Virus record (IMG/VR): IMGVR_UViG_3300028430_000454
Length of the DNA stretch: 40,254 bases
Direction: 5' to 3' (one strand)
Origin: a virus
In this document: positions 5,964 to 40,254 of the stretch, in pieces
Layout: each line of letters opens with the position of its first letter
Position numbering within the stretch: the first letter of the stretch is position 1
Program-made: the position numbers and the translations under genes
Notes under the pieces: generated by a model
The model's database searches: none
Told to the model about the DNA's origin: nothing
Seen by the model: only the letters and a program-made list of their open reading frames with translations

Positions 5964-6386
5964 TTAGTACCCTGCGTCGTCGTAGGGAGTATAGCGCTTC
6001 GACATGGGGGCAGTCGCTGTGGGCATGGAGGTAGTGGGGGCCACAGGATTAATGGCCGGCGTCTGGGGGCGGTTCATGTCTCGATTGCGCAGGAGCGCGC
6101 GCAGGATGGTGGCATTCTGCGCACCCATGCTCGTGTCTAGCCTGCCCCCCGTTTCTTGCGCTCGCTGCCCGAGTTTTTCGGAAGAAAGGTTCTTTGCCAT
6201 CTCCCCCGCATACTGCATGAAGTGCGGAGCGACGAAGTGTCCGTCGACCATTTGTCCACGCGGAGCGATTCCGCGCATCATCTCCGCCTGTTTTCGCTGG
6301 AGGTCGTATTGTCGTTGGAGCCCTTGATTGGCAGTGCCCCCCTCGATCAATTGCCGAAGCTCTTCGTCTGTAATGACTTCGTTCAT
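5964..6386 (-). CDS. virion-associated hypothetical protein
   Basis: 140-aa track ORF, tightly packed between two internal-virion-type genes. No domain recognised. Confidence 0.5.
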   Translation of the reverse strand: MNEVITDEELRQLIEGGTANQGLQRQYDLQRKQAEMMRGIAPRGQMVDGHFVAPHFMQYAGEMAKNLSSEKLGQRAQETGGRLDTSMGAQNATILRALLRNRDMNRPQTPAINPVAPTTSMPTATAPMSKRYTPYDDAGY

Positions 6387-7390
6387 GCGAGCACCATCTG
6401 ATAATTGACTTGGAGATACCCGCCAACCTCCCGTACAGCATCGGGCATGATCTTTTGCACTTCCTGCGCCAGTACGCCAATGTCAAGTTGACCGGCCTTC
6501 GGCCCAGCACGCCAGCGGAACACGTACACGTTGATGCCGTTGTCCAGAAGACCGAGCTCGTAAATGACAGTTTTCAGGCGCTCGTCTGAAAAGGCGAACG
6601 GAACCGCAGCACTTCCAAGGCTGAACAGTCCACTCGTCATATTGGCTGCGTTCGCGTTTTTCGCGTTGACGGCACCCATCTGGGCACCGTAGCCCATGTT
6701 CGCGGCAGACAGCATGTCTGCTCCTGGGGTCGTGGCTTGAGTCGGCACGTTGCTGAACGTAGGATTGACCACTTGCTGCCCACTGCGAACGGCATTGAGC
6801 ATGTTCAGCGGTTCGTTGCGGAAGAAGTTTTCTTCTTGCAATCCCTGCTGGCGGGCCTGCTGGCCCACAGTGATGCCGGACAACGCAGCTTGGCTGTATG
6901 CATCGTTAGCTTGGCGATCCGCACGCTCCATCTCGCGGTCGTAGGCCTCGCTATTTTGCGTCAATCCCTGGTTGAGCAGTTGCGTGCGCAGGGCTTCTCG
7001 GTCGCGGTCGAGTTGCGGCTGGATACGCCGGAGGATCGCAGCCTGCCCCGTCTCGCCAGCGTTGACAGTGCGCCCCGGCAGCTTGCTTTGGTCGAATGGG
7101 CTGTCCAGAGCAGACTGAACATAGCCGAGACCCTTGGACGAAACTGAAGACAGCCCTTGCTTGATGGCATTGTCTTGGTCGAACAGTTTCTGCTGCTCGG
7201 GGGATAGTGCGACAGTCTCCCGCCAACGGTCGCCACCGAGGTCCTCATATGAGCGGGTGCCGTAGGGAGAAACTTGGTCGACACGATTCGCCCGAGCAGC
7301 GATGCGCGCTGCTTCGGCATTGCCTGCTGCGGTGGCCTGTGCGGCACCAGCGTAGTCAGGCGGGGGCGGTGCGGAGGCTTTTCCTCCCAT
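6383..7390 (-). CDS. Gln-rich coiled-coil virion protein with C-terminal peptidase-S74 intramolecular chaperone domain
   Basis: 335 aa. The last 68 aa (SDERLKTVIYELG...IGVLAQEVQKIMPDAVREVGGYLQVNYQMVLA) fit the S74 auto-cleaving chaperone signature (SD-x-R-x-K ... AQEV..P.AV ... Y). Confidence 0.7.
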   Translation of the reverse strand: MGGKASAPPPPDYAGAAQATAAGNAEAARIAARANRVDQVSPYGTRSYEDLGGDRWRETVALSPEQQKLFDQDNAIKQGLSSVSSKGLGYVQSALDSPFDQSKLPGRTVNAGETGQAAILRRIQPQLDRDREALRTQLLNQGLTQNSEAYDREMERADRQANDAYSQAALSGITVGQQARQQGLQEENFFRNEPLNMLNAVRSGQQVVNPTFSNVPTQATTPGADMLSAANMGYGAQMGAVNAKNANAANMTSGLFSLGSAAVPFAFSDERLKTVIYELGLLDNGINVYVFRWRAGPKAGQLDIGVLAQEVQKIMPDAVREVGGYLQVNYQMVLA

Positions 7391-7841
7391 ACTTCTCTCC
7401 CATTTCCAAGAAACGGCACTGTTGCCGTGTCATGGTATATATCAGTAAGTCGCCAACCTTGCCAGCGTCTTTGATGGTTGCCTCTTGGATAAATCCAAGG
7501 TGCTCATCAAATTTTCGGGCCGGGGCGTTCGTACTGTCAACCAAACCAACGATCTTACTTACGTTGATTTGGTTGAATGGGTAATCGAAGCACACCCAGA
7601 GAAACTCTCTCGTCATCCACCGCGCTCCGGGCACAGCGGCGACGTGCATACAAATCGACCTGCCATTCCAACCATCAAACAGGACGCCCGCTATCAGGTC
7701 GTCCGTTGTAGGATTTGTCAACCCTATGGCCGCAGAGTCAGACTTGGAGAAGCTGCCCCCTGTCCTATCGCACACCCACGGCCCCACCCAATCAACGTCA
7801 AAGATAATTCTTGAGGACACTGTACCACAGTGCGCGGGCAT
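7356..7841 (-). CDS. GNAT-family N-acetyltransferase-like protein (moron candidate)
   Basis: 161 aa, with AAGGA 6-7 nt upstream of the ATG at 7841. It has a GNAT-like core (ICMHVAAVPGARWMTREFLWVCFDYPFNQINVSKIVGLVDSTNAPARKFDEHLGFIQE). The gene is visibly AT-richer than its neighbours. Confidence 0.65.
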   Translation of the reverse strand: MPAHCGTVSSRIIFDVDWVGPWVCDRTGGSFSKSDSAAIGLTNPTTDDLIAGVLFDGWNGRSICMHVAAVPGARWMTREFLWVCFDYPFNQINVSKIVGLVDSTNAPARKFDEHLGFIQEATIKDAGKVGDLLIYTMTRQQCRFLEMGEKYGRKSLRTAPA

Positions 7842-7850
7842 TGTAAATCC

Positions 7851-9473
7851 TTAAAGTATGCCACCAAACTCAAAAAGGTAATCAATCGCAGTGAGTGTCG
7901 TAGATGCAGGGCATGCGCTCAACATAGCCGCTGAACCAGAAAATCCCAACCCTGTGGCGCTCGCCCACTCAGCCTGTGACGCCAATCCTCCACCCCAAAA
8001 CGCAGAGTTCCACACAGCAGCGTTCCACACACTTAACGTAGACGCGGGGAAGGTTAGGCTGCCCGTGGGGGGCGTAGGCTGAAAATTTACAGCCACGTCG
8101 ATGAAAACGCCGGGAGACTCGGATGCAAGAAACCACGGACGAACCATCTTGAACTGCTTGAGGTTCGTAGGATTCTCAAAGTAATTGTACGCGGGCTTGA
8201 TTTCTCCGATTACGGGCGTGCCACCCGATCCCGCGTAAGTAACAGCATCTAAATCATTGGCGAACAACAACAGAAGAGTTCCCGAAGCAGTGCCGCCGAA
8301 TAGGTACCCACCACAGACGCCCATGCTGATAATTGGCACATTGTGGAACAGACACCAGTTATTGACGGTCAGCGACATCACAAACTGCGTGGGAAATGTG
8401 GTGTTCGGGTACGGAGAATTCACCACAAGAATGCGTTCGTACGGAGCAATGGCAAGCTGCCATCCGTTCGCGGTAAAACTCTCGCGAACGGCGGAACCCA
8501 ACGTAGGGGCAATCTTGCTGCTGTACTCTTTATTTTGAACAGTCAACAGCGTGCTGCCGCCTCGAGTCACAAGACTGAGAGGAACGACGCCATCGGTAGA
8601 AAGCAGCAAAAGGTCTCCGCCGTACTGTGTGTATCCTCTGCGACCGACAGGAACCTGCCCCACGTACCAGACACCAACGAGTGCGAAGTTGGCGGCAACA
8701 GACGGGTCTGTGCCCCGGTACACCAACACTTCTCCATTGGAACTGACTGCCACGAAATAATCGTCAATGCCGTCTCCTGCGTCGATAGTCCAATTGGCCG
8801 TGAAGGCCAGATGCCCACCACGCTTGAACAGAGGGCCGAAGTCAAACTCTGTAGCATTGCCAGATATGGCGTCAGCGGGCAGATACCACGCCGAGGTAGA
8901 GTTTCGCTCGACAAACCACGCACGTCGCTTCCACACGCTGACGTGTACGAGATCATTCGGGTTTACGTGGTGAACTTCTCCTGGCCCTGAACCCGCAACC
9001 CTGCGCAACCACGTAGTCCCATCATATGTAAAGTAACCGTCGGCCTCACTACATGCTAGAAGAAACGCACCCGCTGAGTTTGCCAACATCGCACTGTTGA
9101 ACAGGCCAGCATTCACATTTCCGCTCAAAGCCAATGCCGAAGCGGGAGAGTTCGTACGCGAAGTCACCGTGTAAATGGCCGTGTCCGTTGCGGCGAACAT
9201 CGCCCCCGGCATGGTTGTCGGTATTGTGAGAAACGCCCCTGCGGGAAAGTTGGTGTTCGAGGCGAAGTACGCCAAGACGGACTTTACTGGTGCCGCCCCT
9301 GGGAATCCAGTAGCCCATTCTTGGTATCCTTTGCGACTGCGCACACCATAAGTATCAGGGATCCAGTTAGTCAGCACCACAGCATCCGTGGGGGGCATGT
9401 TCGCAATGCCGTCACGTGTGTTGAGACCCCCGTTGGGGGCCGGAACTGTCTTGGTCTGGTAGGTGCGTTTCAC
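7851..9473 (-). CDS. tail tubular protein B-like / nozzle protein
   Basis: 540 aa with an N-terminal motif (APNGGLNTRDGIANMPPTDAVVLTNW..G.RSRKGY) typical of podovirus tail tube/nozzle proteins. It sits after a gp11-like gene. Confidence 0.55.
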   Translation of the reverse strand: MKRTYQTKTVPAPNGGLNTRDGIANMPPTDAVVLTNWIPDTYGVRSRKGYQEWATGFPGAAPVKSVLAYFASNTNFPAGAFLTIPTTMPGAMFAATDTAIYTVTSRTNSPASALALSGNVNAGLFNSAMLANSAGAFLLACSEADGYFTYDGTTWLRRVAGSGPGEVHHVNPNDLVHVSVWKRRAWFVERNSTSAWYLPADAISGNATEFDFGPLFKRGGHLAFTANWTIDAGDGIDDYFVAVSSNGEVLVYRGTDPSVAANFALVGVWYVGQVPVGRRGYTQYGGDLLLLSTDGVVPLSLVTRGGSTLLTVQNKEYSSKIAPTLGSAVRESFTANGWQLAIAPYERILVVNSPYPNTTFPTQFVMSLTVNNWCLFHNVPIISMGVCGGYLFGGTASGTLLLLFANDLDAVTYAGSGGTPVIGEIKPAYNYFENPTNLKQFKMVRPWFLASESPGVFIDVAVNFQPTPPTGSLTFPASTLSVWNAAVWNSAFWGGGLASQAEWASATGLGFSGSAAMLSACPASTTLTAIDYLFEFGGIL

Positions 9474-10195
9474 GAGCCGTAGTTCGTGTCGGGGATGTTG
9501 ATTTGATTCAACAAAATGCCGTCGGCCCCTTGCCGCAGGGACAACGTTCTGCTGGGCGCGTCTTTGTCCTTGGCTGCGGCCAACACTCGCGCCATTTCAA
9601 AATTGGTGCCTGTCGTGTCGAACCCTTTGGCAGTCTGCCACGCCAGCTTCAGTGCAACCTTGAAAAGCTGGGGGTCGTACAAGATTACGTCGTCATCTGC
9701 TTGGAGTGTGTCTCGGTAAACACCCGTAGCAGACCGCACCCACCCGCGACTGTTGTAGGGCAGCACGACAAGCTGAGCGGTGCTGCCCACATCATAAAAC
9801 TCTACAGCCTCGTTCGCTATGATGTACATCATTGCGAATGTAGTCCCCCCAAGGTTGCGAGCCTTGAGTGTCTGCCACTCAACTTCAGTGAGCGAGCCTA
9901 TAGCAGGAAGTCGCTGTGTTCTGTTCCAGGAAGCATCATTGACGAAAGAGTCAAAGTCTTCCGGAAAACTGTACCTCGTGGTGCCTGGAACAGTAGTGAT
10001 GGAAAACTCAGCCATCAGAAACTGCCAAGCGAACATGTCGATAAGCTGCTGACCTACTTCACTCGCAAGTTGCCACAACTGTTGAACAGTTCTGTCTTGA
10101 CTGCTCGCAGCTGAGGTTGTCGCGGGAAGACCCAAAATACGGAGAGTGTCCGCGACTGCAGTCTGTCCCGTAATCTTGCGAGCGAAGTTTGGCAT
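9470..10195 (-). CDS. tail tubular protein A-like / adaptor protein
   Basis: 241 aa, coupled to the downstream 540-aa gene. Position and size fit a T7 gp11-type protein. The family assignment is not verified. Confidence 0.45.
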   Translation of the reverse strand: MPNFARKITGQTAVADTLRILGLPATTSAASSQDRTVQQLWQLASEVGQQLIDMFAWQFLMAEFSITTVPGTTRYSFPEDFDSFVNDASWNRTQRLPAIGSLTEVEWQTLKARNLGGTTFAMMYIIANEAVEFYDVGSTAQLVVLPYNSRGWVRSATGVYRDTLQADDDVILYDPQLFKVALKLAWQTAKGFDTTGTNFEMARVLAAAKDKDAPSRTLSLRQGADGILLNQINIPDTNYGS

Positions 10196-32181: not shown

Positions 32182-32406
32182 ATGATTGATTACCTGCCGT
32201 GGGTACTGAGCGCAATCACCATTTACCAGTCGTATCTCGTCGGCAATAAGGACATACGGGGGTGGATTCTCTCGCTGGTGAACCAGACGCTGTGGTTCCT
32301 GTGGGTCATCGGCAGCGGAACGTGGGGATTCCTCCCCCTCAACATCGCACTCACAGCCATGTACGTCCGCAATTACCGGAAATGGAAGCGTGAGAAACAC
32401 GCTTGA
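32182..32406 (+). CDS. small multi-TM membrane protein
   Basis: Start at MIDYLPWVL (ATG at 32182) inside track ORF 32128..32406. 74 aa with 2-3 hydrophobic helices and a basic tail. Confidence 0.5.
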   Translation: MIDYLPWVLSAITIYQSYLVGNKDIRGWILSLVNQTLWFLWVIGSGTWGFLPLNIALTAMYVRNYRKWKREKHA

Positions 32407-32944
32407 ATCGGATGTAGAGGAGACTGTAATCAGTTGGTCTAAGGGTTGCGGCCTCCTTGCTTTCAAGCTAAACTTGCAAGGCAATACCGGCTGGCCGGAC
32501 CGTCTCTGGCTGTTCTATTACCCATTCATCTGCTTCATAGAGTTCAAGAAACCGGGCAGGGGCGACAAGCTAGACCGTAACCAGCCCGCGCGCATTGAAG
32601 AGCTACGTCGCAGGGGATATCCCGTAGGAGTCTTTGACAATGCAAGAGACGCAATCGAGTTTATACGTTCCACGTGCCTATCAGGCCGAGGCGATCAAAC
32701 TGTGCATCAGTCAGGCGTGTGCTGGCCTGCTGATGGCCCCGGGACTGGGCAAGACGTCAGTGATTTACAGCGTAGTTTTGATTTTACTTTCAAAGAAAAT
32801 GATCAAGCGCACGCTGGTCATCTGTCCCCTGCGCCCCGCGTACCGCGTCTGGCCCCACCAGAAAGATCGGTTCGAGCAGTTCAAGCATTTGCGAGTGAGC
32901 TTGCTGCATGGCAAAGACAAAGAGAAAAGACTCCACGAAGATAG
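32390..32944 (+). CDS. VRR-NUC domain nuclease (3' end uncertain)
   Basis: GTG start. The first ~95 aa carry the VRR-NUC signature (GWPDRLWLF...FIEFKKPG...RNQ...L...GY). The frame then stays open for ~85 more codons, overlapping the SNF2 gene out of frame. Confidence 0.6.
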   Translation: MRNTLESDVEETVISWSKGCGLLAFKLNLQGNTGWPDRLWLFYYPFICFIEFKKPGRGDKLDRNQPARIEELRRRGYPVGVFDNARDAIEFIRSTCLSGRGDQTVHQSGVCWPADGPGTGQDVSDLQRSFDFTFKENDQAHAGHLSPAPRVPRLAPPERSVRAVQAFASELAAWQRQREKTPRR

Positions 32945-34271: not shown

Positions 34272-35213
34272 GTGAACATCTTCTACCTAGATCACGACCC
34301 TGCACTTGCTGCCATGTATCAACATGACAAGCATGTAGTCAAAATGTGTCTGGAAACTGCGCAAATACTTTGTGCAGTTCAACACCGCTACGGACGCAAT
34401 GCCCCCTACAAGCCGACGCATCAGAACCATCCGTGCGTGCTGTGGGCAGGCGACCACGTCAAGCACTACGATTGGTTGGTGCGGCACGGAGAATACCTGT
34501 GCCTGGAGTACACCACGCGATTTCGTAAAAGGCACGCATGCGCGAACGTAATCGATAAGGTGCGCTATGCGCCCCCCGAGATGTACGAGCGCGTGCGGCG
34601 ACAGACAATGCCTCCGCAGTGCATGCCCGATGAATACAAGGTTCCGGGCCAGACTGTGCTAGCATACCGCAATTACTACCTCGGCGCGAAGGTAGCCAAC
34701 CAGAACTGGACGAACCGCGCACGTCCAAACTTTCTCATTCAAGGAGAAGCAAAAATGGCAAAGAAGAAAGCAGCCCCGGCAACCGAAACCGTCGCCGAAG
34801 GTACCACGGAAGAGACTGTACTGGACGCAGGTTCGCACCCGGCACCCACCGAGCCGGTGGCGCGCACCCGTGGCCCCCGTGGCGTGCCGGAAACCGCCGT
34901 GATCACCGTGCTGGCCGACAAAAACCCGAAGCGCGTCGGCTCCAAAGCCTTCGATCTCTGGGAGAAATACAGTAACGGCATGACCGTGGCGCAGTACGTG
35001 GACGCTACGGGCAAGGACGCCACCCCGGCGCTCGTGTACGACGCGGCCCACGGCTTCATCAGCATCGAGGGGTACACCCCCGGCCAGATCATCACCCCCA
35101 AGGTGCGCGAGCCGAAGGCCCCCAAGGAGCCGAAGGCGAAAAAGCCCAAGGCGGTGAAAGAGGCCGAGGCCGAGGTGGACGCAGATCTGGCGGCGACCGA
35201 AGAAGAGGCCTGA
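34272..35213 (+). CDS. two-part protein: conserved N-terminal domain (possible EndoV/pyrimidine-dimer-glycosylase-like) + Lys/Ala/Pro-tailed winged-helix-like C-terminal domain
   Basis: 313 aa with a GTG start. The N-terminal motif is MNIFYLDHDP..DKHVVKM..ETAQIL..YKPTHQNHPC. An in-frame internal ATG at 34755 has a perfect AAGGAG (34741-34746) 8 nt upstream. The glycosylase-like call is memory only and unverified. Confidence 0.55.
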   Translation: MNIFYLDHDPALAAMYQHDKHVVKMCLETAQILCAVQHRYGRNAPYKPTHQNHPCVLWAGDHVKHYDWLVRHGEYLCLEYTTRFRKRHACANVIDKVRYAPPEMYERVRRQTMPPQCMPDEYKVPGQTVLAYRNYYLGAKVANQNWTNRARPNFLIQGEAKMAKKKAAPATETVAEGTTEETVLDAGSHPAPTEPVARTRGPRGVPETAVITVLADKNPKRVGSKAFDLWEKYSNGMTVAQYVDATGKDATPALVYDAAHGFISIEGYTPGQIITPKVREPKAPKEPKAKKPKAVKEAEAEVDADLAATEEEA

Positions 35214-35220
35214 TCACCCA

Positions 35221-35248
35221 GCACGGCACTCGATTACGGGTGCCGTGC
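35221..35248 (+). terminator. hairpin between 34272..35213 and the FkbM gene
   Basis: GCACGGCAC (35221-35229) pairs with GTGCCGTGC (35240-35248) across a 10-nt loop. There is no U-tract. Confidence 0.35.
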
Positions 35249-35276
35249 GGACACTCCACCCTCTGTAAGGAATGCC

Positions 35277-35909
35277 ATGATTACGACGTACAAGGGATAC
35301 ATCGTACGAGAAGGAACGCTTGACAGCTACGTGGTTGACGAGCTGAGAACTTACCGAATGCTGACCCTGTACCCGCACGACATCGTTCTTGATGTAGGCG
35401 GCAACATCGGCAGTTTCGCGAAATACGCCGCCGGGATCTGCCATAGCGTAGTGTCCGTGGAGCCGTCCCCAGACAACTTTGCTCTTCTGGAAATCAACTC
35501 CCCCCGCAGCCTGAACATCAATGCTGCGGTTGTCGGTGACAACATGACGCAGAATGTTTTTCTCTACGAAAACCGGGGGAAAAACAAGGGACTGCACAGT
35601 ACCGTTCCCACGCGGGGGCGAGATGTAGTGACCGTGCCCGCTGTCGAATTCGCCAAATTGCTGCACGACTATACACCAACCAAGTTGAAGGTAGACTGCG
35701 AGGGGGCAGAGTATAGTTTCGTGGTGCCGGGGGAATTGCCAGAGTCCGTCAAGGCAGTGGCTATCGAGTACAACCTGACCAGAAAACATGAGCGCGGCGC
35801 GGCTTCTGCCATGCACCAGAAATTTCTAGAGTCAGGGTTCGCGTGCTTAAAGTTCCCCACCCTGCACACGAAGGCGTGGGCAACTCTCTCTTTCTACGAA
35901 AGGGCGTAG
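35277..35909 (+). CDS. FkbM-family SAM-dependent methyltransferase
   Basis: 210 aa. Motifs: DIVLDVGGNIGSFAKYAA (SAM motif I), VVSVEPSPDNFALLEIN and KLKVDCEGAEYSF, typical of FkbM/Methyltransf_21. Confidence 0.75.
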   Translation: MITTYKGYIVREGTLDSYVVDELRTYRMLTLYPHDIVLDVGGNIGSFAKYAAGICHSVVSVEPSPDNFALLEINSPRSLNINAAVVGDNMTQNVFLYENRGKNKGLHSTVPTRGRDVVTVPAVEFAKLLHDYTPTKLKVDCEGAEYSFVVPGELPESVKAVAIEYNLTRKHERGAASAMHQKFLESGFACLKFPTLHTKAWATLSFYERA

Positions 35910-35912
35910 GCA

Positions 35913-36725
35913 ATGCAAATCTTCATCCCCACCTACGGTCGCTCGGGGGAGCAGGCTACGCTGAGTAACCTGCTCCCGACGGGCCGTAAGGTGACGTTAG
36001 TCGTGCAAGAACGAGAAGCATCGAAGTATCTAGCGCACAGTGTGTTAGAGTCCGTGAGTGTGCAAGTGCTGCCCCCGGAAATACAGACCATCAGCGCAAC
36101 ACGGGATTACATCCTCAAGCACGCAACGGATGACTCAATCCTCATGCTTGACGATGACCTCGACTTTGCGGTGCGCCGCACAGACGATCCAACTCGATTC
36201 CGCAGCCCTGAGACTGAAGACATCAAGCGCATGCTCAACGAAGTTGAAGAGCTGCTGACCACCAGCCCATTCGTCAGCATAGGGGCGAGGGAGGGCGGCA
36301 ATCGCAATGTGGAGCCGTACCTGTACAACACACGAATGATGCGTGCCTTGGGCTACCGGCGCGACTATCTCAACGCGTGGAAAATCACGTTTGCCCCCAT
36401 GGAACTCATGGAAGACTTCCACGTTGCCCTACAAATCATGCTGGTTGGGGGCACCTGTGTCGTGGCGAACAAGTGGGTCACCAACCAACGTTCCGGCAGT
36501 GGGGCGAAAGGCGGGTGCTCCAGCTACCGCACGCTCGAGATGCATGGGGACGCTGCCCGTCAACTTGCCGCGCTGTACCCTGAATATGTTACTGTGGTAC
36601 ACAAGCAAACGAAAACGGCGTGGGGCGGGCAACCACGGCTTGATGTGCGAGTAGCATGGAAAAAGGCCGCAGCGGCCGGAAAGGCTAGTCGTGAAAAAAG
36701 AAGAACTGGCGTACTGGATCAATGA
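35913..36725 (+). CDS. GT-A-like DxD glycosyltransferase (TET/JBP-associated-GT-like candidate)
   Basis: 270 aa. The N-terminal Rossmann start MQIFIPTYGR and the motif ILMLDDDLDF (DxD) fit a GT-A fold. The specific family is not verified. Confidence 0.5.
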   Translation: MQIFIPTYGRSGEQATLSNLLPTGRKVTLVVQEREASKYLAHSVLESVSVQVLPPEIQTISATRDYILKHATDDSILMLDDDLDFAVRRTDDPTRFRSPETEDIKRMLNEVEELLTTSPFVSIGAREGGNRNVEPYLYNTRMMRALGYRRDYLNAWKITFAPMELMEDFHVALQIMLVGGTCVVANKWVTNQRSGSGAKGGCSSYRTLEMHGDAARQLAALYPEYVTVVHKQTKTAWGGQPRLDVRVAWKKAAAAGKASREKRRTGVLDQ

Positions 36726-37500
36726 GCGGTACAGCATCATGAAGAAAAAGACTGCGGGGCAGGTGCCCCCGTGGACCGCTGACCCGAACATGGCGGGGGT
36801 GCGCTGGTGCAACGTCCACCGCGAGGATGATGCTGTTACCGTGTGGATGGCGCGCGAGTGGCGCTGCGCGAAGATGCCCATGTGGTGGATCGTCCTGGGG
36901 CGCATGCTCAATTACATCCCCACACTCAACGAAGTGGTGAGTGCGCAGGTGCCGAAGACATACCCCGACCTATCCACCATCGGGGGTATCTTGAAGGCCC
37001 GTCGTGAGCGGGGCGACAAGGTGTTCACCAGCGCATACACGATCTCCACCTGCGGCAAGAAGATGGACAAGATCGATTACGTGATGGAGGTCGTGCAGGC
37101 ATTCATGGAGGCCGGGGAGCCTGACTACAGCAGCCTCGCTGAGTGCTACAAGCAAATCACGTGCGTTGACGGGTTTGGGAGCTTTTTGGCTGGGCAGGTG
37201 CTGGCTGACTGCAAAAACACCCCCGGCCACCCGCTCCAGAGCGCTCCAGACTGGCACACGTGGTGCAGCCCCGGCCCCGGTAGCCTGCGGGGGCTTTCAG
37301 CGCTCTACGGCGTTCCCATTACGCCCAAGGGGTTTCAAGCCGCCATCAGCATGGCATGGGAGGCCACCGCCCCCCTCATCAACGAAGACATTCCCCCCAT
37401 ACACATGCAAGATTTCCAGAACTGCCTGTGTGAGTTTTCCAAATACATGAGGGTCAAGTATGGAGATCGAAGGGTCAGGAATACATACCATCCAGGGTGA
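36691..37500 (+). CDS. aGPT-Pplase-like protein (alpha-glutamyl/putrescinyl-thymine pyrophosphorylase family candidate)
   Basis: 269 aa with a GTG start overlapping the upstream gene by 35 nt. The N-terminal pattern WINERYSI..K..GQVPPWTADPNMAGVRWCNVHREDDAVTVW matches the remembered family signature (ER..I...K..G.P.PWT.DPIL...RF.NV.RE.D..T.W). Confidence 0.5.
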   Translation: MKKEELAYWINERYSIMKKKTAGQVPPWTADPNMAGVRWCNVHREDDAVTVWMAREWRCAKMPMWWIVLGRMLNYIPTLNEVVSAQVPKTYPDLSTIGGILKARRERGDKVFTSAYTISTCGKKMDKIDYVMEVVQAFMEAGEPDYSSLAECYKQITCVDGFGSFLAGQVLADCKNTPGHPLQSAPDWHTWCSPGPGSLRGLSALYGVPITPKGFQAAISMAWEATAPLINEDIPPIHMQDFQNCLCEFSKYMRVKYGDRRVRNTYHPG

Positions 37501-37663
37501 CCTGATTGTGGGCGAGGAAGTCCACGGGTGTGCGATCAACTGCACGGTGGTGCCGTACAGTGACATGCAGGACGGGTGGTTCATGGTTCAGTTTCTCACC
37601 CGACAACAAATGGAAGGCTACGCCCGTGAACATAGCCTCCTCATAAAGGAGCAGAAAGAGTGA
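37460..37663 (+). CDS. hypothetical small protein
   Basis: 67-aa track ORF. It overlaps the upstream gene by 41 nt, and its stop overlaps the next GTG start (GTGA). Confidence 0.3.
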   Translation: MEIEGSGIHTIQGDLIVGEEVHGCAINCTVVPYSDMQDGWFMVQFLTRQQMEGYAREHSLLIKEQKE

Positions 37664-38667
37664 CGATGCAAGTAAGCGGCAGAAATGTGAATGATGTTTT
37701 CACCGACGCCATCTGGTTCATGCGCACTCTCGGCCCTGAGTGCCACGAGCAGTCCAGAAACGGCCCCGTGCTGGTGGCACCGGGGCCGGTCGTCTCCAAA
37801 TACCTGTGCCCGTGGGAGCGCGTACTCTTCGACACCCGCAGGGACGCCAACCCCACTTTCCACTTGATGGAAGCTATCTGGATGTTGGCGGGAGAAAACA
37901 GGGTGGACTGGCTGGAACAGTTCAACTCTAACATTGGCAGGTACGCCAATGATGGAATCATCAACGGAGCCTACGGGCACCGCTGGCGCTCGCATTTCGA
38001 TGACGTGGACCAAATCAGCTACGTGGTGAACACACTGCGCAACGATGCCTCGTCGCGCCGCGCCGTCATCAACATGTGGGATCCCGTACAAGACAGGGCG
38101 CTAGAGTGGAACGACGTGCCCTGCAACACCACGATCTACTTCGACCTCAGGGGCGGCAAACTCAACATGACCGTCTGTTGTCGCAGCAATGACGCGATCT
38201 GGGGATGCTACGGAGCCAACGTAGTTCATTTCAGTGTGCTGCAGGAGTATGTGGCTGCGTTTCTTCGAGCACCGATGGGGGTGTACCTTCAGTTCAGCAA
38301 CAACTTCCACATCTACACAGACTTGACTCTGTGGCAAGATTACCGGGTGATGCCCCCTATTTTCGCCCCCCGGTACCGCACGGCAGCGGCCAAAGACCAA
38401 TGGAGTAGCCCCTTCGTTTTCCCGCTGGTGGAGCACGGAGACCGTCCCATGGAATTCAAGGAAGACTGTTTCCGGCTGCTGGAGGGCGTGAAGTGCAAGA
38501 GCCCATTCATGCAACGGGTCGCTGAGCCGATGAAGAATGCATACCTCGCCCGTAAGGCAGGGGACACCAAGGGTGTGGCCGATGCGCTGACCAGCATGGC
38601 GAATTGCGACTGGTACTACGCACTCACCGACTGGATCAAGAGGAGAGACAATGCCCAAAGCGAATGA
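37660..38667 (+). CDS. thymidylate-synthase-family enzyme (pyrimidine hydroxymethylase candidate)
   Basis: 335 aa. AAGGAG (37646-37651) lies 8 nt before GTG 37660; ATG 37666 is an alternative start. Motifs: RRDANPTFHLMEAIWMLAGEN, GAYGHRWR, SRRAVINMWDP, the catalytic-Cys context DVPCNTTIYF, and CCRSNDAIWGCYGAN. Confidence 0.8.
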   Translation: MTMQVSGRNVNDVFTDAIWFMRTLGPECHEQSRNGPVLVAPGPVVSKYLCPWERVLFDTRRDANPTFHLMEAIWMLAGENRVDWLEQFNSNIGRYANDGIINGAYGHRWRSHFDDVDQISYVVNTLRNDASSRRAVINMWDPVQDRALEWNDVPCNTTIYFDLRGGKLNMTVCCRSNDAIWGCYGANVVHFSVLQEYVAAFLRAPMGVYLQFSNNFHIYTDLTLWQDYRVMPPIFAPRYRTAAAKDQWSSPFVFPLVEHGDRPMEFKEDCFRLLEGVKCKSPFMQRVAEPMKNAYLARKAGDTKGVADALTSMANCDWYYALTDWIKRRDNAQSE

Positions 38668-38920
38668 TCATCAGGTAGCGGGCGACCACTACAAGACTGA
38701 CCACACTGTGCAACACTGGGACGTGGTCGACTTGTTCAATCTCGACTATTTCCAGGGACAAATCACCAAGTACGTGTTCCGCTGGAAGTACAAACACGAC
38801 ACTCCTAAGAAGCGTCTCGACGACTTGAAGAAGGCGCGGCACTTTCTCGACAAGTACATCGAGATACAGGAGCGTGACGACGCAGAAGAGGCTGGCCCCA
38901 GCTACGTGAATCAAGGATAG
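38651..38920 (+). CDS. DUF3310-family protein
   Basis: 89 aa. QVAGDHYK...NLDYFQGQITKYVFRWKYKH...DDLKKARHFLDKYIE fits the DUF3310 pattern. Confidence 0.65.
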   Translation: MPKANDHQVAGDHYKTDHTVQHWDVVDLFNLDYFQGQITKYVFRWKYKHDTPKKRLDDLKKARHFLDKYIEIQERDDAEEAGPSYVNQG

Positions 38921-40003: not shown

Positions 40004-40242
40004 CCGAGCCGATCAAGCAACCTGAAGCCCTGCGGCTGGCTGATGCGCTTGGGCTGTACTACACACACCTCACAGCGGTGCCTGACATCAACCGTGAAGC
40101 CGCCGCCGAACTGCGCCGGTTGCATGCCGAGAACGAGAGGCTGCGGGCATTGCTTACCCGTTACCGCAACGAGACGCCGCTCGGCCATCAGCCGCACATG
40201 GTCGCGCACGAAGTGGACGCCGCACTGAAGGAGACGAAATGA
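40000..40242 (+). CDS. hypothetical coiled-coil protein
   Basis: ATG at 40000 overlaps the upstream TGA (ATGA), inside track ORF 39910..40242. 80 aa, starting MTEPIK. The last 43 nt lie in the contig-end repeat. Confidence 0.5.
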   Translation: MTEPIKQPEALRLADALGLYYTHLTAVPDINREAAAELRRLHAENERLRALLTRYRNETPLGHQPHMVAHEVDAALKETK

Positions 40243-40254
40243 GCGATACGCCGA
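40200..40254. repeat. contig-end direct repeat, copy 2
   Basis: Identical to nt 1-55. Confidence 0.95.

Follow-up and report, generated by a model that had tools for sequence, protein, structure and literature searches.

Which base modification, if any, is encoded by a block of seven genes at positions 34272 to 38920 of the IMG/VR virus record IMGVR_UViG_3300028430_000454, a stretch of 40,254 nucleotides referred to below as the window? The block joins a divergent thymidylate synthase (TS) homolog to a glycosyltransferase (GT), a methyltransferase and a protein of family PF18723, and an earlier note made from the letters alone had read it as a candidate DNA hypermodification island with a gene set that fitted no known pathway. 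The analysis presented here suggests, with fair rather than full confidence, that the block holds a kinase-independent, sugar-type cassette for thymidine hypermodification, through which 5-hydroxymethyldeoxyuridine (5-hmdU) in DNA would be glycosylated, with or without O-methylation, and without being phosphorylated. The cassette itself is real and widespread, and at the level of gene neighbourhoods it was partly anticipated. Iyer et al. (2013) may have predicted part of it. It merges two known logics, the 5-hmdU-based hypermodification of thymidine and glycosylation of the T-even type.

The window carries an exact 55-bp direct repeat at its ends (positions 1-55 and 40200-40254), which marks a circularly assembled, complete phage genome of ~40.2 kb; its source is a complete ~40 kb tailed phage. 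Since the genome is complete, statements on missing genes are meaningful. A search at the DNA level returned no close annotated relative, only short TS segments matching at ~70-80% identity. All seven open reading frames (ORFs) lie on the + strand, downstream of genes for a family-A DNA polymerase, a PD-(D/E)XK nuclease, a VRR-NUC protein and an SNF2 helicase, and the opposite strand carries the structural, lysis and packaging genes. Their packing is tight: the genes for the FkbM-family methyltransferase and the GT are 3 nt apart, and overlaps join the GT to the PF18723 gene (35 nt), the latter to a small ORF (41 nt), the small ORF to the TS gene (4 nt) and the TS gene to that of a DUF3310-like protein (17 nt), with a purine tract resembling a ribosome-binding site upstream of every start in the block. 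The co-directional, mostly overlapping layout behind the replication genes, noticed earlier, thus holds to the nucleotide. Six of the seven ORFs gave significant family matches in profile searches (Pfam, PHROG, NCBIfam), and the arrangement is not a product of chance, because synteny is kept across dozens of related contigs.

The nature of the modified base can be predicted from the TS homolog (37660..38667, + strand), which matches the Thymidylat_synt profile PF00303 (E 2.6e-21) and phrog_5131 (1e-94). It falls below every NCBIfam cut-off for ThyA equivalogs (best scores 93 vs 174.6 and 65.8 vs 327), and its nearest phage relatives are the enzymes of Pam3 (41% identity), of M6-type phages (38%) and SPO1 gp29 (32%). 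The positions that are diagnostic in the TS family (L143, D169, N177) have been summarised (PMC13326640); in our alignment the catalytic-site series C146, L143, D169 and N177 corresponds to C155, D152, D178 and N187 of the window protein. The resulting D/C/D/N signature matches SPO1 gp29 and the M6 type and differs from both T4 gp42 and ThyA. Asp152 at the L143 position is the acidic residue typical of hydroxymethylases, where canonical ThyA is hydrophobic. The same four residues recur in all 31 cassette homologs of the TS, those of phages phiRSL1 and LuckyBarnes included. The enzyme is accordingly predicted, from its active-site signature, to be a dUMP 5-hydroxymethylase yielding 5-hydroxymethyl-dUMP (5-hmdUMP), and not an ordinary ThyA, in keeping with the divergent TS described earlier.

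A cytosine system of T-even type has to be weighed at this point, in which the TS homolog would produce 5-hydroxymethyl-dCMP or 5-hydroxy-dCMP and the GT would glycosylate cytosine derivatives. The best match of the TS homolog among PDB sequences is indeed the CMP hydroxymethylase MilA (5e-24, with ThyA at ~5e-13), and members of the TAGT family, to which the GT belongs, place sugar on DNA, acting on glucosyl-5-hydroxymethylcytosine in T6-like phages (PMC13390438). The diagnostic residues nevertheless make this very improbable: the N177 equivalent is Asn187, the uracil-type residue also found in SPO1 and M6, where T4 gp42 and MilA have Asp, and Asp178 at the D169 position sets the protein apart from 5-hydroxy-dCMP synthases, which have Asn there. 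The closest phage relatives, moreover, are the dUMP hydroxymethylases of M6-type phages, Pam3 and SPO1, and no dCTPase was found. The cassette shares with the T-even route (T4 gp42 plus alpha/beta-GT) a TS-family hydroxymethylase working on the nucleotide and a DNA GT working after replication, the latter from the same Pfam family as the second glucosyltransferase of the T6 type; it differs in the predicted base, in the invariable presence of an additional PF18723 protein and in an optional methyltransferase. The glycosylated and/or methylated 5-hydroxymethylpyrimidine proposed in the earlier note was a reasonable prediction, with the base now specified as uracil by the TS signature.

If the base is 5-hydroxymethyluracil (5-hmU), the obvious precedent is the pathway of M6, ViI, PhiW-14, SP10, PaMx11 and SH-Ab 15599, where a dUMP hydroxymethylase, a 5-hmdU DNA kinase and an amino-acid/diamine:DNA transferase act together. 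The likeness is considerable: besides the M6-type hydroxymethylase, a PF18723 gene stands just upstream of the TS gene, a DUF3310-like gene and sometimes an HD gene stand downstream, the whole lies in the replication module, and post-replicative chemistry on 5-hmU in DNA would be expected in both. It is the derivatising enzymes that are missing. Searches of the complete genome by tblastn with the M6 kinase, the Pam3 NTPase and a dNK-like kinase gave no match, and neither did queries for the transferase AADT (M6 gp51), for pyridoxal-phosphate (PLP) and radical S-adenosylmethionine (rSAM) enzymes, or for Nmad5. Walker A motifs occur only in the terminase ORF, in a 558-aa ORF of the structural-gene region and in one short ORF judged spurious, which leaves no candidate kinase ORF. 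Neither a P-loop 5-hmdU DNA kinase (PF18748/PF18751) nor a PF18724 transferase nor any PLP, rSAM or flavin tailoring enzyme is present in the complete genome, so that the missing kinase reported earlier is missing genome-wide. In place of the kinase, which holds the position directly upstream of PF18723 in M6, Pam3 and Lucky3, there is a GT, and the predicted adduct is a sugar rather than an amino acid or polyamine.

That the standard kinase and amino-acid-transferase pathway nevertheless operates, with both enzymes encoded elsewhere or too divergent to be seen, is scarcely credible. What speaks for it is that PF18723 is otherwise known from the M6, ViI, PhiW-14 and SP10 pathways; against it stand the completeness of the genome, the blank searches and the same absence in all related cassette loci, where tblastn over the IMG/VR members found no homologs of the M6 kinase, AADT, PLP, rSAM or Nmad5 genes. 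A phage that does have these genes shows them plainly: in MW202557 (the Manatee Spring phage, L001 in our numbering of related loci, positions 5970-9548), on a similar backbone running from SNF2 to TS-HD-DUF3310, genes for an AADT-like protein and for a kinase of dNK-like type lie between SNF2 and TS instead of GT and PF18723, which suggests that amino-acid-type and sugar-type modules are swapped as units. With both the kinase and AADT features and the cytosine specificity failing, the cassette fits neither known kind fully.

The enzyme that takes the kinase's place (35913..36725, + strand) is a TAGT-family GT-A glycosyltransferase. It matches PF20691 over residues 1-200 (profile positions 1-204 of 205; E 9.6e-20, 71.8 bits against a cut-off of 27.5) and phrog_842 (1.4e-48), and an AlphaFold2 (AF2) model built from 44 homologs (pLDDT 94.8, pTM 0.92) has a GT-A fold. 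A DDD motif (D80-D81-D82) is invariant in these 44 homologs, so that the DxD GT-A-like transferase of the earlier note is borne out. A profile of the protein found no match among PDB sequences; by structure, Foldseek against the PDB gave as best matches the GT-A enzymes TarP, TarS and RmlT (E ~1e-7, probability 1.0). TAGT enzymes also add sugars to DNA in TET-linked pathways of phages. Phage GT-A DNA glycosyltransferases are reported to resemble both TarP and the base J glucosyltransferase JGT, and a survey of metaviromes has already recorded many GT-like genes adjacent to ThyS, without determination of the product (bioRxiv 10.1101/2023.12.21.572611). In the window, the GT associates with the TS homolog, as TAGT members of the T6 type and other ThyS-linked ones do, and no Tet_JBP match was obtained among the window proteins scanned. 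On the grounds of family, fold and context, we infer that the GT takes a sugar from a nucleotide-sugar of the host and attaches it to 5-hmU in DNA, at the 5-hydroxymethyl group.

A different explanation would be that these genes lie side by side but belong to no shared pathway. The TS would then only supply 5-hmdU (or dTMP) for DNA, and the GT and the methyltransferase would act on something other than DNA, such as teichoic acid, a surface polysaccharide of the host or a protein of the phage. The closest solved structures of the GT are, after all, wall-teichoic-acid enzymes. FkbM enzymes, as generic O-methyltransferases that occur frequently in pathways for glycans and natural products, also suit this explanation. 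In addition, ~65% of the phage contigs with a GT-A or GT-B in one survey had no adjacent base-modification gene (bioRxiv 10.1101/2023.12.21.572611). We consider it improbable, since the GT scores as a member of TAGT, a family defined on DNA-modifying contexts, its ORF overlaps that of PF18723, which is itself linked to TS, and the block lies within the replication module of a genome in which no integrase was found among the larger ORFs that were compared with PHROGs or Pfam (a scan that did not cover every ORF). Comparative evidence also speaks against independent neighbours.

The cassette was mapped by tblastn over 29 IMG/VR loci and followed into further contigs from ENA, Logan and JGI. About 25 of the 29 loci keep the order PD-(D/E)XK, VRR-NUC, SNF2, [Pyr_excise], GT, PF18723, [small ORF], TS, DUF3310 (brackets mark genes that are not always there) at 35-52% identity per protein. 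The series GT, PF18723, (small ORF), TS, DUF3310 recurs in over 30 phage contigs from metagenomes, and the order GT-PF18723-TS is kept across >30 loci at 35-50% identity and on unrelated phage backbones. In two genomes (L043, 10180-11439; L044, 10147-11406) a non-homologous GT-B of 419 aa (Glycos_transf_1) fills exactly the same slot directly upstream of PF18723-TS; this non-orthologous displacement is an argument that what this slot requires is the transfer of a glycosyl group. No informative fusions, of GT to PF18723 or otherwise, were seen among 120 GT homologs and the best 150 PF18723 representatives.

Variants of the trio also occur in cultured phages, and the gene set is consequently far from unique, contrary to what had been supposed: GT-PF18723-TS-DUF3310 is widespread, and TAGT-type GT(s), PF18723 and a TS of dUMP-hydroxymethylase type come together in phiRSL1, LuckyBarnes and PhiJL001. 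The Alphaproteobacteria phage PhiJL001 encodes PF18723 (gp19), a GT (gp22), Nmad5 (gp23), TS (gp24), HD (gp25) and DUF3310 (gp26) within gp19-26, and the Brevibacterium phage LuckyBarnes has a TS, two GTs and PF18723 in gp38-41. In the Ralstonia phage phiRSL1, ORF230-237 comprise three TAGT-like GTs, an NDP-sugar pyrophosphorylase, a nucleotidyltransferase, a Sulfotransfer_2 enzyme, PF18723 and TS; the gene content of this cultured jumbo phage predicts a sulfated oligosaccharide on 5-hmdU. Relative to the window, with its one GT, its FkbM methyltransferase and its minimal set of nucleotide-metabolism genes, these phages have two or three GTs and sugar-nucleotide enzymes (phiRSL1), or Nmad5, HD and dCMP deaminase (PhiJL001), and the D/C/D/N signature of the TS is common to the window, phiRSL1 and LuckyBarnes. 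For none of the three cultured phages did we find a paper on the chemistry of the DNA.

Several side observations concern these loci. The phiRSL1 cassette occupies NC_010811 162402-170840 (L046), with a HAD_PNKP phosphatase nearby. In LuckyBarnes, gp41 (L045, 2807-4360) is a TS-like protein of 517 aa, with its TS domain at residues ~13-239 and a C-terminal extension of ~280 aa beyond it that has no assignment. One relative (L026, 4594-5502) has in the GT slot upstream of PF18723 a 302-aa ORF without a Pfam match, which may be another kind of transferase. Elsewhere, TAGT genes stand in the classical pairing with Tet_JBP (L016), beside a B12-binding rSAM enzyme and a PolA exonuclease fused to UDG (L017, 395-4156), or beside an rSAM-SPASM enzyme and DUF2284 (L019, 5998-8441); the last two are additional, so far uncharacterised settings of DNA modification.

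The component that kinase-type and sugar-type pathways have in common, and whose function is the least obvious, is the PF18723 protein (36691..37500, + strand), a member of the family named HMUDK_hel, formerly aGPT-Pplase clade 1, of the M6 gp55 type. Residues 6-257 align to profile positions 7-276 of 281 (E 4.1e-34, 118.7 bits against a cut-off of 25), identity to M6 ORF055/gp55 is ~29%, and the protein matches no other Pfam family, PF18724 included, even at E<=10. The earlier label of aGPT-Pplase-like protein was thus right as to the former clade 1 and wrong if taken for the characterised transferases of clade 2, since Pfam places M6 gp51, PaMx11 gp46 and ViI gp247 in PF18724 ('ADDT') and the M6 kinase gp54 in PF18748. 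We found no published function for PF18723, and the family is not taken up in the more recent papers on structures and pathways.

A partner rule emerges from the neighbourhoods of PF18723: an enzyme that derivatises the hydroxyl always stands directly before it or is fused to it. This is a kinase in the M6 type, in Pam3 and in Lucky3 (Ploopntkinase3), a fused kinase in SP10 (with PF18723 as the C-terminal domain of gp186), and a GT in the window, in LuckyBarnes and in the two GT-B genomes. The family name HMUDK_hel implies a partnership with a 5-hmdU DNA kinase, which the window does not show. Lucky3 had been considered as a phage with TS and PF18723 and no transferase, a candidate that was dropped on account of the kinase directly upstream. 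The family numbers 4218 representative clusters at E<=1e-3 (clusters at 50% identity), nearly always as a stand-alone protein. It is absent from SPO1, whose DNA contains plain 5-hmdU, and from the TAGT loci paired with Tet_JBP (L016) or rSAM enzymes (L017, L019); it therefore tracks the post-replicative processing of TS-derived 5-hmU. A role as a general GT helper was ruled out by the same TET- and rSAM-linked loci, which have no PF18723.

The AF2 model of the protein is all-alpha (pLDDT 91.8). Against the PDB, Foldseek gave nothing below E 0.5, with EndoIII as a weak top match and no AADT among the 50 matches listed; against BFVD, the model matched the homologs of phiRSL1, PhiW-14, Lucky3 and SP10 (the kinase fusion) with TM scores of 0.69-0.79 and an AADT-domain protein with E 2.6e-3 and TM 0.54. 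The fold is distantly similar to those of HhH glycosylases and AADTs. In an alignment of 12 widely diverged members (from the window, from three metagenomic relatives, PhiJL001 gp19, the M6 type, Pam3, phiRSL1 ORF231, LuckyBarnes gp38, Lucky3 gp54, the ViI type and SP10 gp186), R13, N41, R44, D47, A115, F165, D173, G195-P-G197, G201, C247, E248 and K251 are invariant, so that a motif C247-E248-x-x-K251 stands out. Clade 2 enzymes depend on a Cys, which is Cys247 in PaMx11 gp46, and on acidic metal ligands close to it, all within the motif QEVETVLC; the Cys attacks C6 and phosphate is lost (PMC8989533, PMC11472151). The PF18723 profile places a Q-x-x-x-L-C-E on this Cys motif in the same register in three clade 2 sequences, each alignment being insignificant on its own (E 0.07-0.7), and hhalign against the same three sequences gave no signal (probability 0.1). 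PF18723 is probably an enzyme related to the AADTs; given the insignificant alignments, the equivalence of the catalytic Cys stays at the level of inference, and the protein may be either a DNA-level partner of the derivatising enzyme or an enzyme acting on 5-hmU itself.

These features give some weight to a different chemistry, in which the GT would add only a transient activating group, playing the role that phosphate has in M6-type phages, and a Cys-dependent PF18723 would attack C6, expel the group and deliver another nucleophile or hydride; alternatively, PF18723 would return unglycosylated 5-hmU to thymine within the polymer. The invariant C247-E248-x-x-K251, its register with the clade 2 Cys, the precedent of Cys attack with phosphate loss, the resemblance of the fold to AADT-domain proteins, the invariable position behind a hydroxyl-derivatising enzyme and the absence from SPO1 are all compatible with it, and so is the DNA of phage 15599, which contains 77% dT and 23% dapT despite an encoded dTTPase/dUTPase and with no thymine-regenerating enzyme assigned. 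We regard it as unlikely, with a small but real chance of being correct. Glycosides are poor leaving groups, and their use as such would be without precedent; the two or three GTs and the sugar-activating and sulfating enzymes of phiRSL1 and LuckyBarnes are sensible only if a glycan is the final product; the alignment of clade 1 with clade 2 is insignificant, the window protein has Q-N where clade 2 has the metal ligands E-T, and no reductant-binding domain is evident.

Under the glycosylation that we favour, the pathway would begin with the conversion of dUMP to 5-hmdUMP by the TS homolog. The nucleotide would then be raised to the triphosphate, possibly, and on a weak argument, with the help of the DUF3310-like protein (38651..38920, + strand), whose gene is translationally coupled to TS and comes after TS in nearly all related loci. 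This small protein matches phrog_5839 (3e-21) and several PHROGs annotated as nucleotide kinase (up to 1e-16), and the nucleotide kinase gp1.7 of T7 carries DUF3310 (4.5e-23), so that a gp1.7-like kinase of 5-hmdUMP, or a factor associated with such a kinase, is a tentative assignment. The family-A polymerase of the phage would incorporate 5-hmdUTP, which would replace dTTP partly or wholly, and after replication the TAGT GT-A would glycosylate 5-hmU in DNA at its 5-CH2-OH, with a nucleotide-sugar of the host as donor, giving an O-glycoside analogous to base J. PF18723 would act together with the GT at the DNA level, as it does with the 5-hmdU DNA kinase in phages of the M6, Lucky3 and SP10 types, either as a subunit that recognises 5-hmU and flips the base or as a Cys-dependent enzyme. 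The expected benefit is phage DNA shielded from restriction-type defences.

The likeness to the base J of trypanosomatids (JBP1/2 and JGT) lies in the predicted product, an O-glycoside on 5-hmU in DNA. The route differs: base J arises by site-specific oxidation of thymine by Tet/JBP enzymes, and 5-hmU would here come genome-wide from a nucleotide-level TS homolog, with no JBP-like gene and with PF18723 and FkbM proteins that have no counterpart in that system. From the TAGT cassettes of the TET/JBP kind (C5-methyltransferase, 5mYOX and GT), which share the GT family, the window cassette is separated by the lack of a methyltransferase/dioxygenase pair, by the pre-replicative origin of the hydroxymethyl group and by the presence of PF18723.

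The last step would fall to the FkbM-family, S-adenosylmethionine (SAM)-dependent methyltransferase (35277..35909, + strand), which scores above the cut-offs of PF05050 (E 4.3e-11, 43.7 vs 22.7 bits) and TIGR01444 (7.9e-17, 62 vs 37.7 bits), as the earlier assignment to this family leads one to expect, and in whose translation the glycine-rich SAM-binding motif VLDVGGNIGSF can be read; among PDB sequences it has no solved relative. It is not a core member of the cluster. In the nearest relatives (L037-L039; PF18723 ~80% and GT 82-86% identical) the Pyr_excise gene is followed directly by the GT gene, without FkbM. By blastn of L037 and L038 against the window, at 80-94% identity, the 3' end of Pyr_excise aligns up to ~35219 and the GT start from 35913, with ~12 nt between the two genes in those relatives, so that the gene sits on an insertion of ~690 bp (~35220..35912), shared only by a near-identical twin contig from JGI (L040). 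A gene peculiar to the window is excluded all the same by homologs in the same slot in four further lineages: at 48-59% identity, they lie directly upstream of TAGT-PF18723-TS, or one small ORF away, in L041, L042, L051 and L052. In the two GT-B genomes they lie between the DNA polymerase and PD-(D/E)XK nuclease genes, and several short contigs (1.7-3.5 kb) with FkbM homologs are equal in size to contigs with GT homologs. The carbohydrate-type sulfotransferase of phiRSL1 holds an analogous position beside PF18723. Absence from the nearest relatives, recurrence by the GT elsewhere and the phiRSL1 sulfotransferase together suggest that FkbM is a recent indel encoding an optional tailoring enzyme, which probably methylates a hydroxyl of the DNA-linked sugar.

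Several points weigh against glycosylation of TS-derived 5-hmdU as outlined here. In the literature we found no phage in which a TS-plus-GT pathway is described as producing glycosyl-5-hmdU, so that the product is without direct precedent. T4 and JGT-type GTs work without a helper, and M6 gp55 is dispensable for the formation of N-alpha-glycinylthymidine in vitro (PMC8989533). The PF18723 sequences do not sort by partner, the window protein being 34% identical to that of kinase-type Pam3 vs 27% to that of GT-type phiRSL1, and the invariant Cys-Glu hints at catalysis beyond simple glycosylation, so that the final product could differ. As to precursors, tblastn over the complete genome gave no match for an HD hydrolase or a dCMP deaminase, and dUTPase and dTTPase are not present either; replacement of T may for this reason be partial or inefficient. 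The DUF3310 call of the earlier note is a weak one, the Pfam match (PF11753, 5.6e-4) reaching 20.4 bits against a gathering score of 24, and BLASTP found no similarity to T7 gp1.7. FkbM enzymes, finally, have many types of acceptor, and in the two GT-B genomes the gene is not beside the GT.

If glycosylation of 5-hmdU without phosphorylation is correct, phages would arrive at a glycosylated thymine of the base J kind by another route than trypanosomes, with a nucleotide-level TS homolog where the latter have a JBP dioxygenase, and the lineage of the window would add O-methylation of the sugar. Because the cassette is common (more than 4000 PF18723 clusters, and the GT form in dozens of ~40 kb phage genomes), a large and so far uncharacterised class of DNA hypermodification would be predictable from sequence. 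PF18723 is thereby singled out as the conserved, unassigned component common to amino-acid-type and sugar-type pathways, with a partner rule attached, and the cultured phages phiRSL1, LuckyBarnes and PhiJL001 make the question accessible to experiment. Such modifications matter for evasion of restriction and CRISPR, for sequencing artefacts and for the enzymatic labelling of DNA. It is tempting to go further and to hypothesize that the product is O-methyl-glycosyl-5-hydroxymethyluracil, a methylated base-J-like nucleobase undescribed in any organism, and that PF18723 is a Cys-dependent DNA enzyme acting on O-derivatised 5-hmU, whether derived from a kinase or from a GT, one possibility being that it supplies the long-sought activity converting leftover 5-hmU to thymine in the polymer; this larger proposal is a speculative one, and we would attach to it a low, though not negligible, probability.

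The first gene of the block (34272..35213, + strand) encodes a two-domain protein. Its N-terminal domain is of the Pyr_excise type, resembling T4 endonuclease V (PF03013, residues 1-89, E 2.7e-7, 31.3 bits against a cut-off of 23; phrog_624, residues 1-167, 1e-51), which agrees with the glycosylase-like N-terminus suggested earlier; the C-terminal half, a conserved Lys-rich domain, matches no family in Pfam or PHROG, and the winged helix-turn-helix once proposed for it found no support. Among PDB sequences the protein has no relative. The domain aligns with T4 endonuclease V over its whole length; a Glu in the motif LETAQ, conserved in all homologs, presumably corresponds to the catalytic Glu23 of that enzyme, and the N-terminus, where the T4 enzyme has its amine nucleophile, is Met-Asn, not Met-Thr. 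The gene lies between SNF2 and GT in L009, L020, L022-L024, L037-L039, L042 and L051; many other relatives, and likewise phiRSL1 and LuckyBarnes, lack it or have it in a form that cannot be recognised. Since only part of the relatives have it, the protein is best treated as an optional neighbour, probably concerned with repair or DNA binding, and its place in the modification island of the earlier note is not supported.

The small ORF between PF18723 and TS (37460..37663, + strand, 67 aa) has no Pfam or PHROG match and is conserved nonetheless, with homologs at 29-45% identity in relatives including L027/L028 (45%, E 1e-17) and L029, and an ORF of the same size and position is called in L037, L038, L040-L042 and L052. 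It sits in the slot where M6, Pam3 and PhiJL001 encode Nmad5.

A minor observation concerns the genes upstream of the block. The VRR-NUC ORF (32390-32944) overlaps the SNF2 ORF (32634/32640-34049) by ~305 nt in a different frame, and VRR-NUC homology stops at ~32672, exactly where SNF2 homology starts. The overlap is repeated in related loci, where gene callers leave a 'gap' of 230-330 nt, and either an overlap of unusual length or a +1 frameshift that fuses VRR-NUC to SNF2 could account for it.

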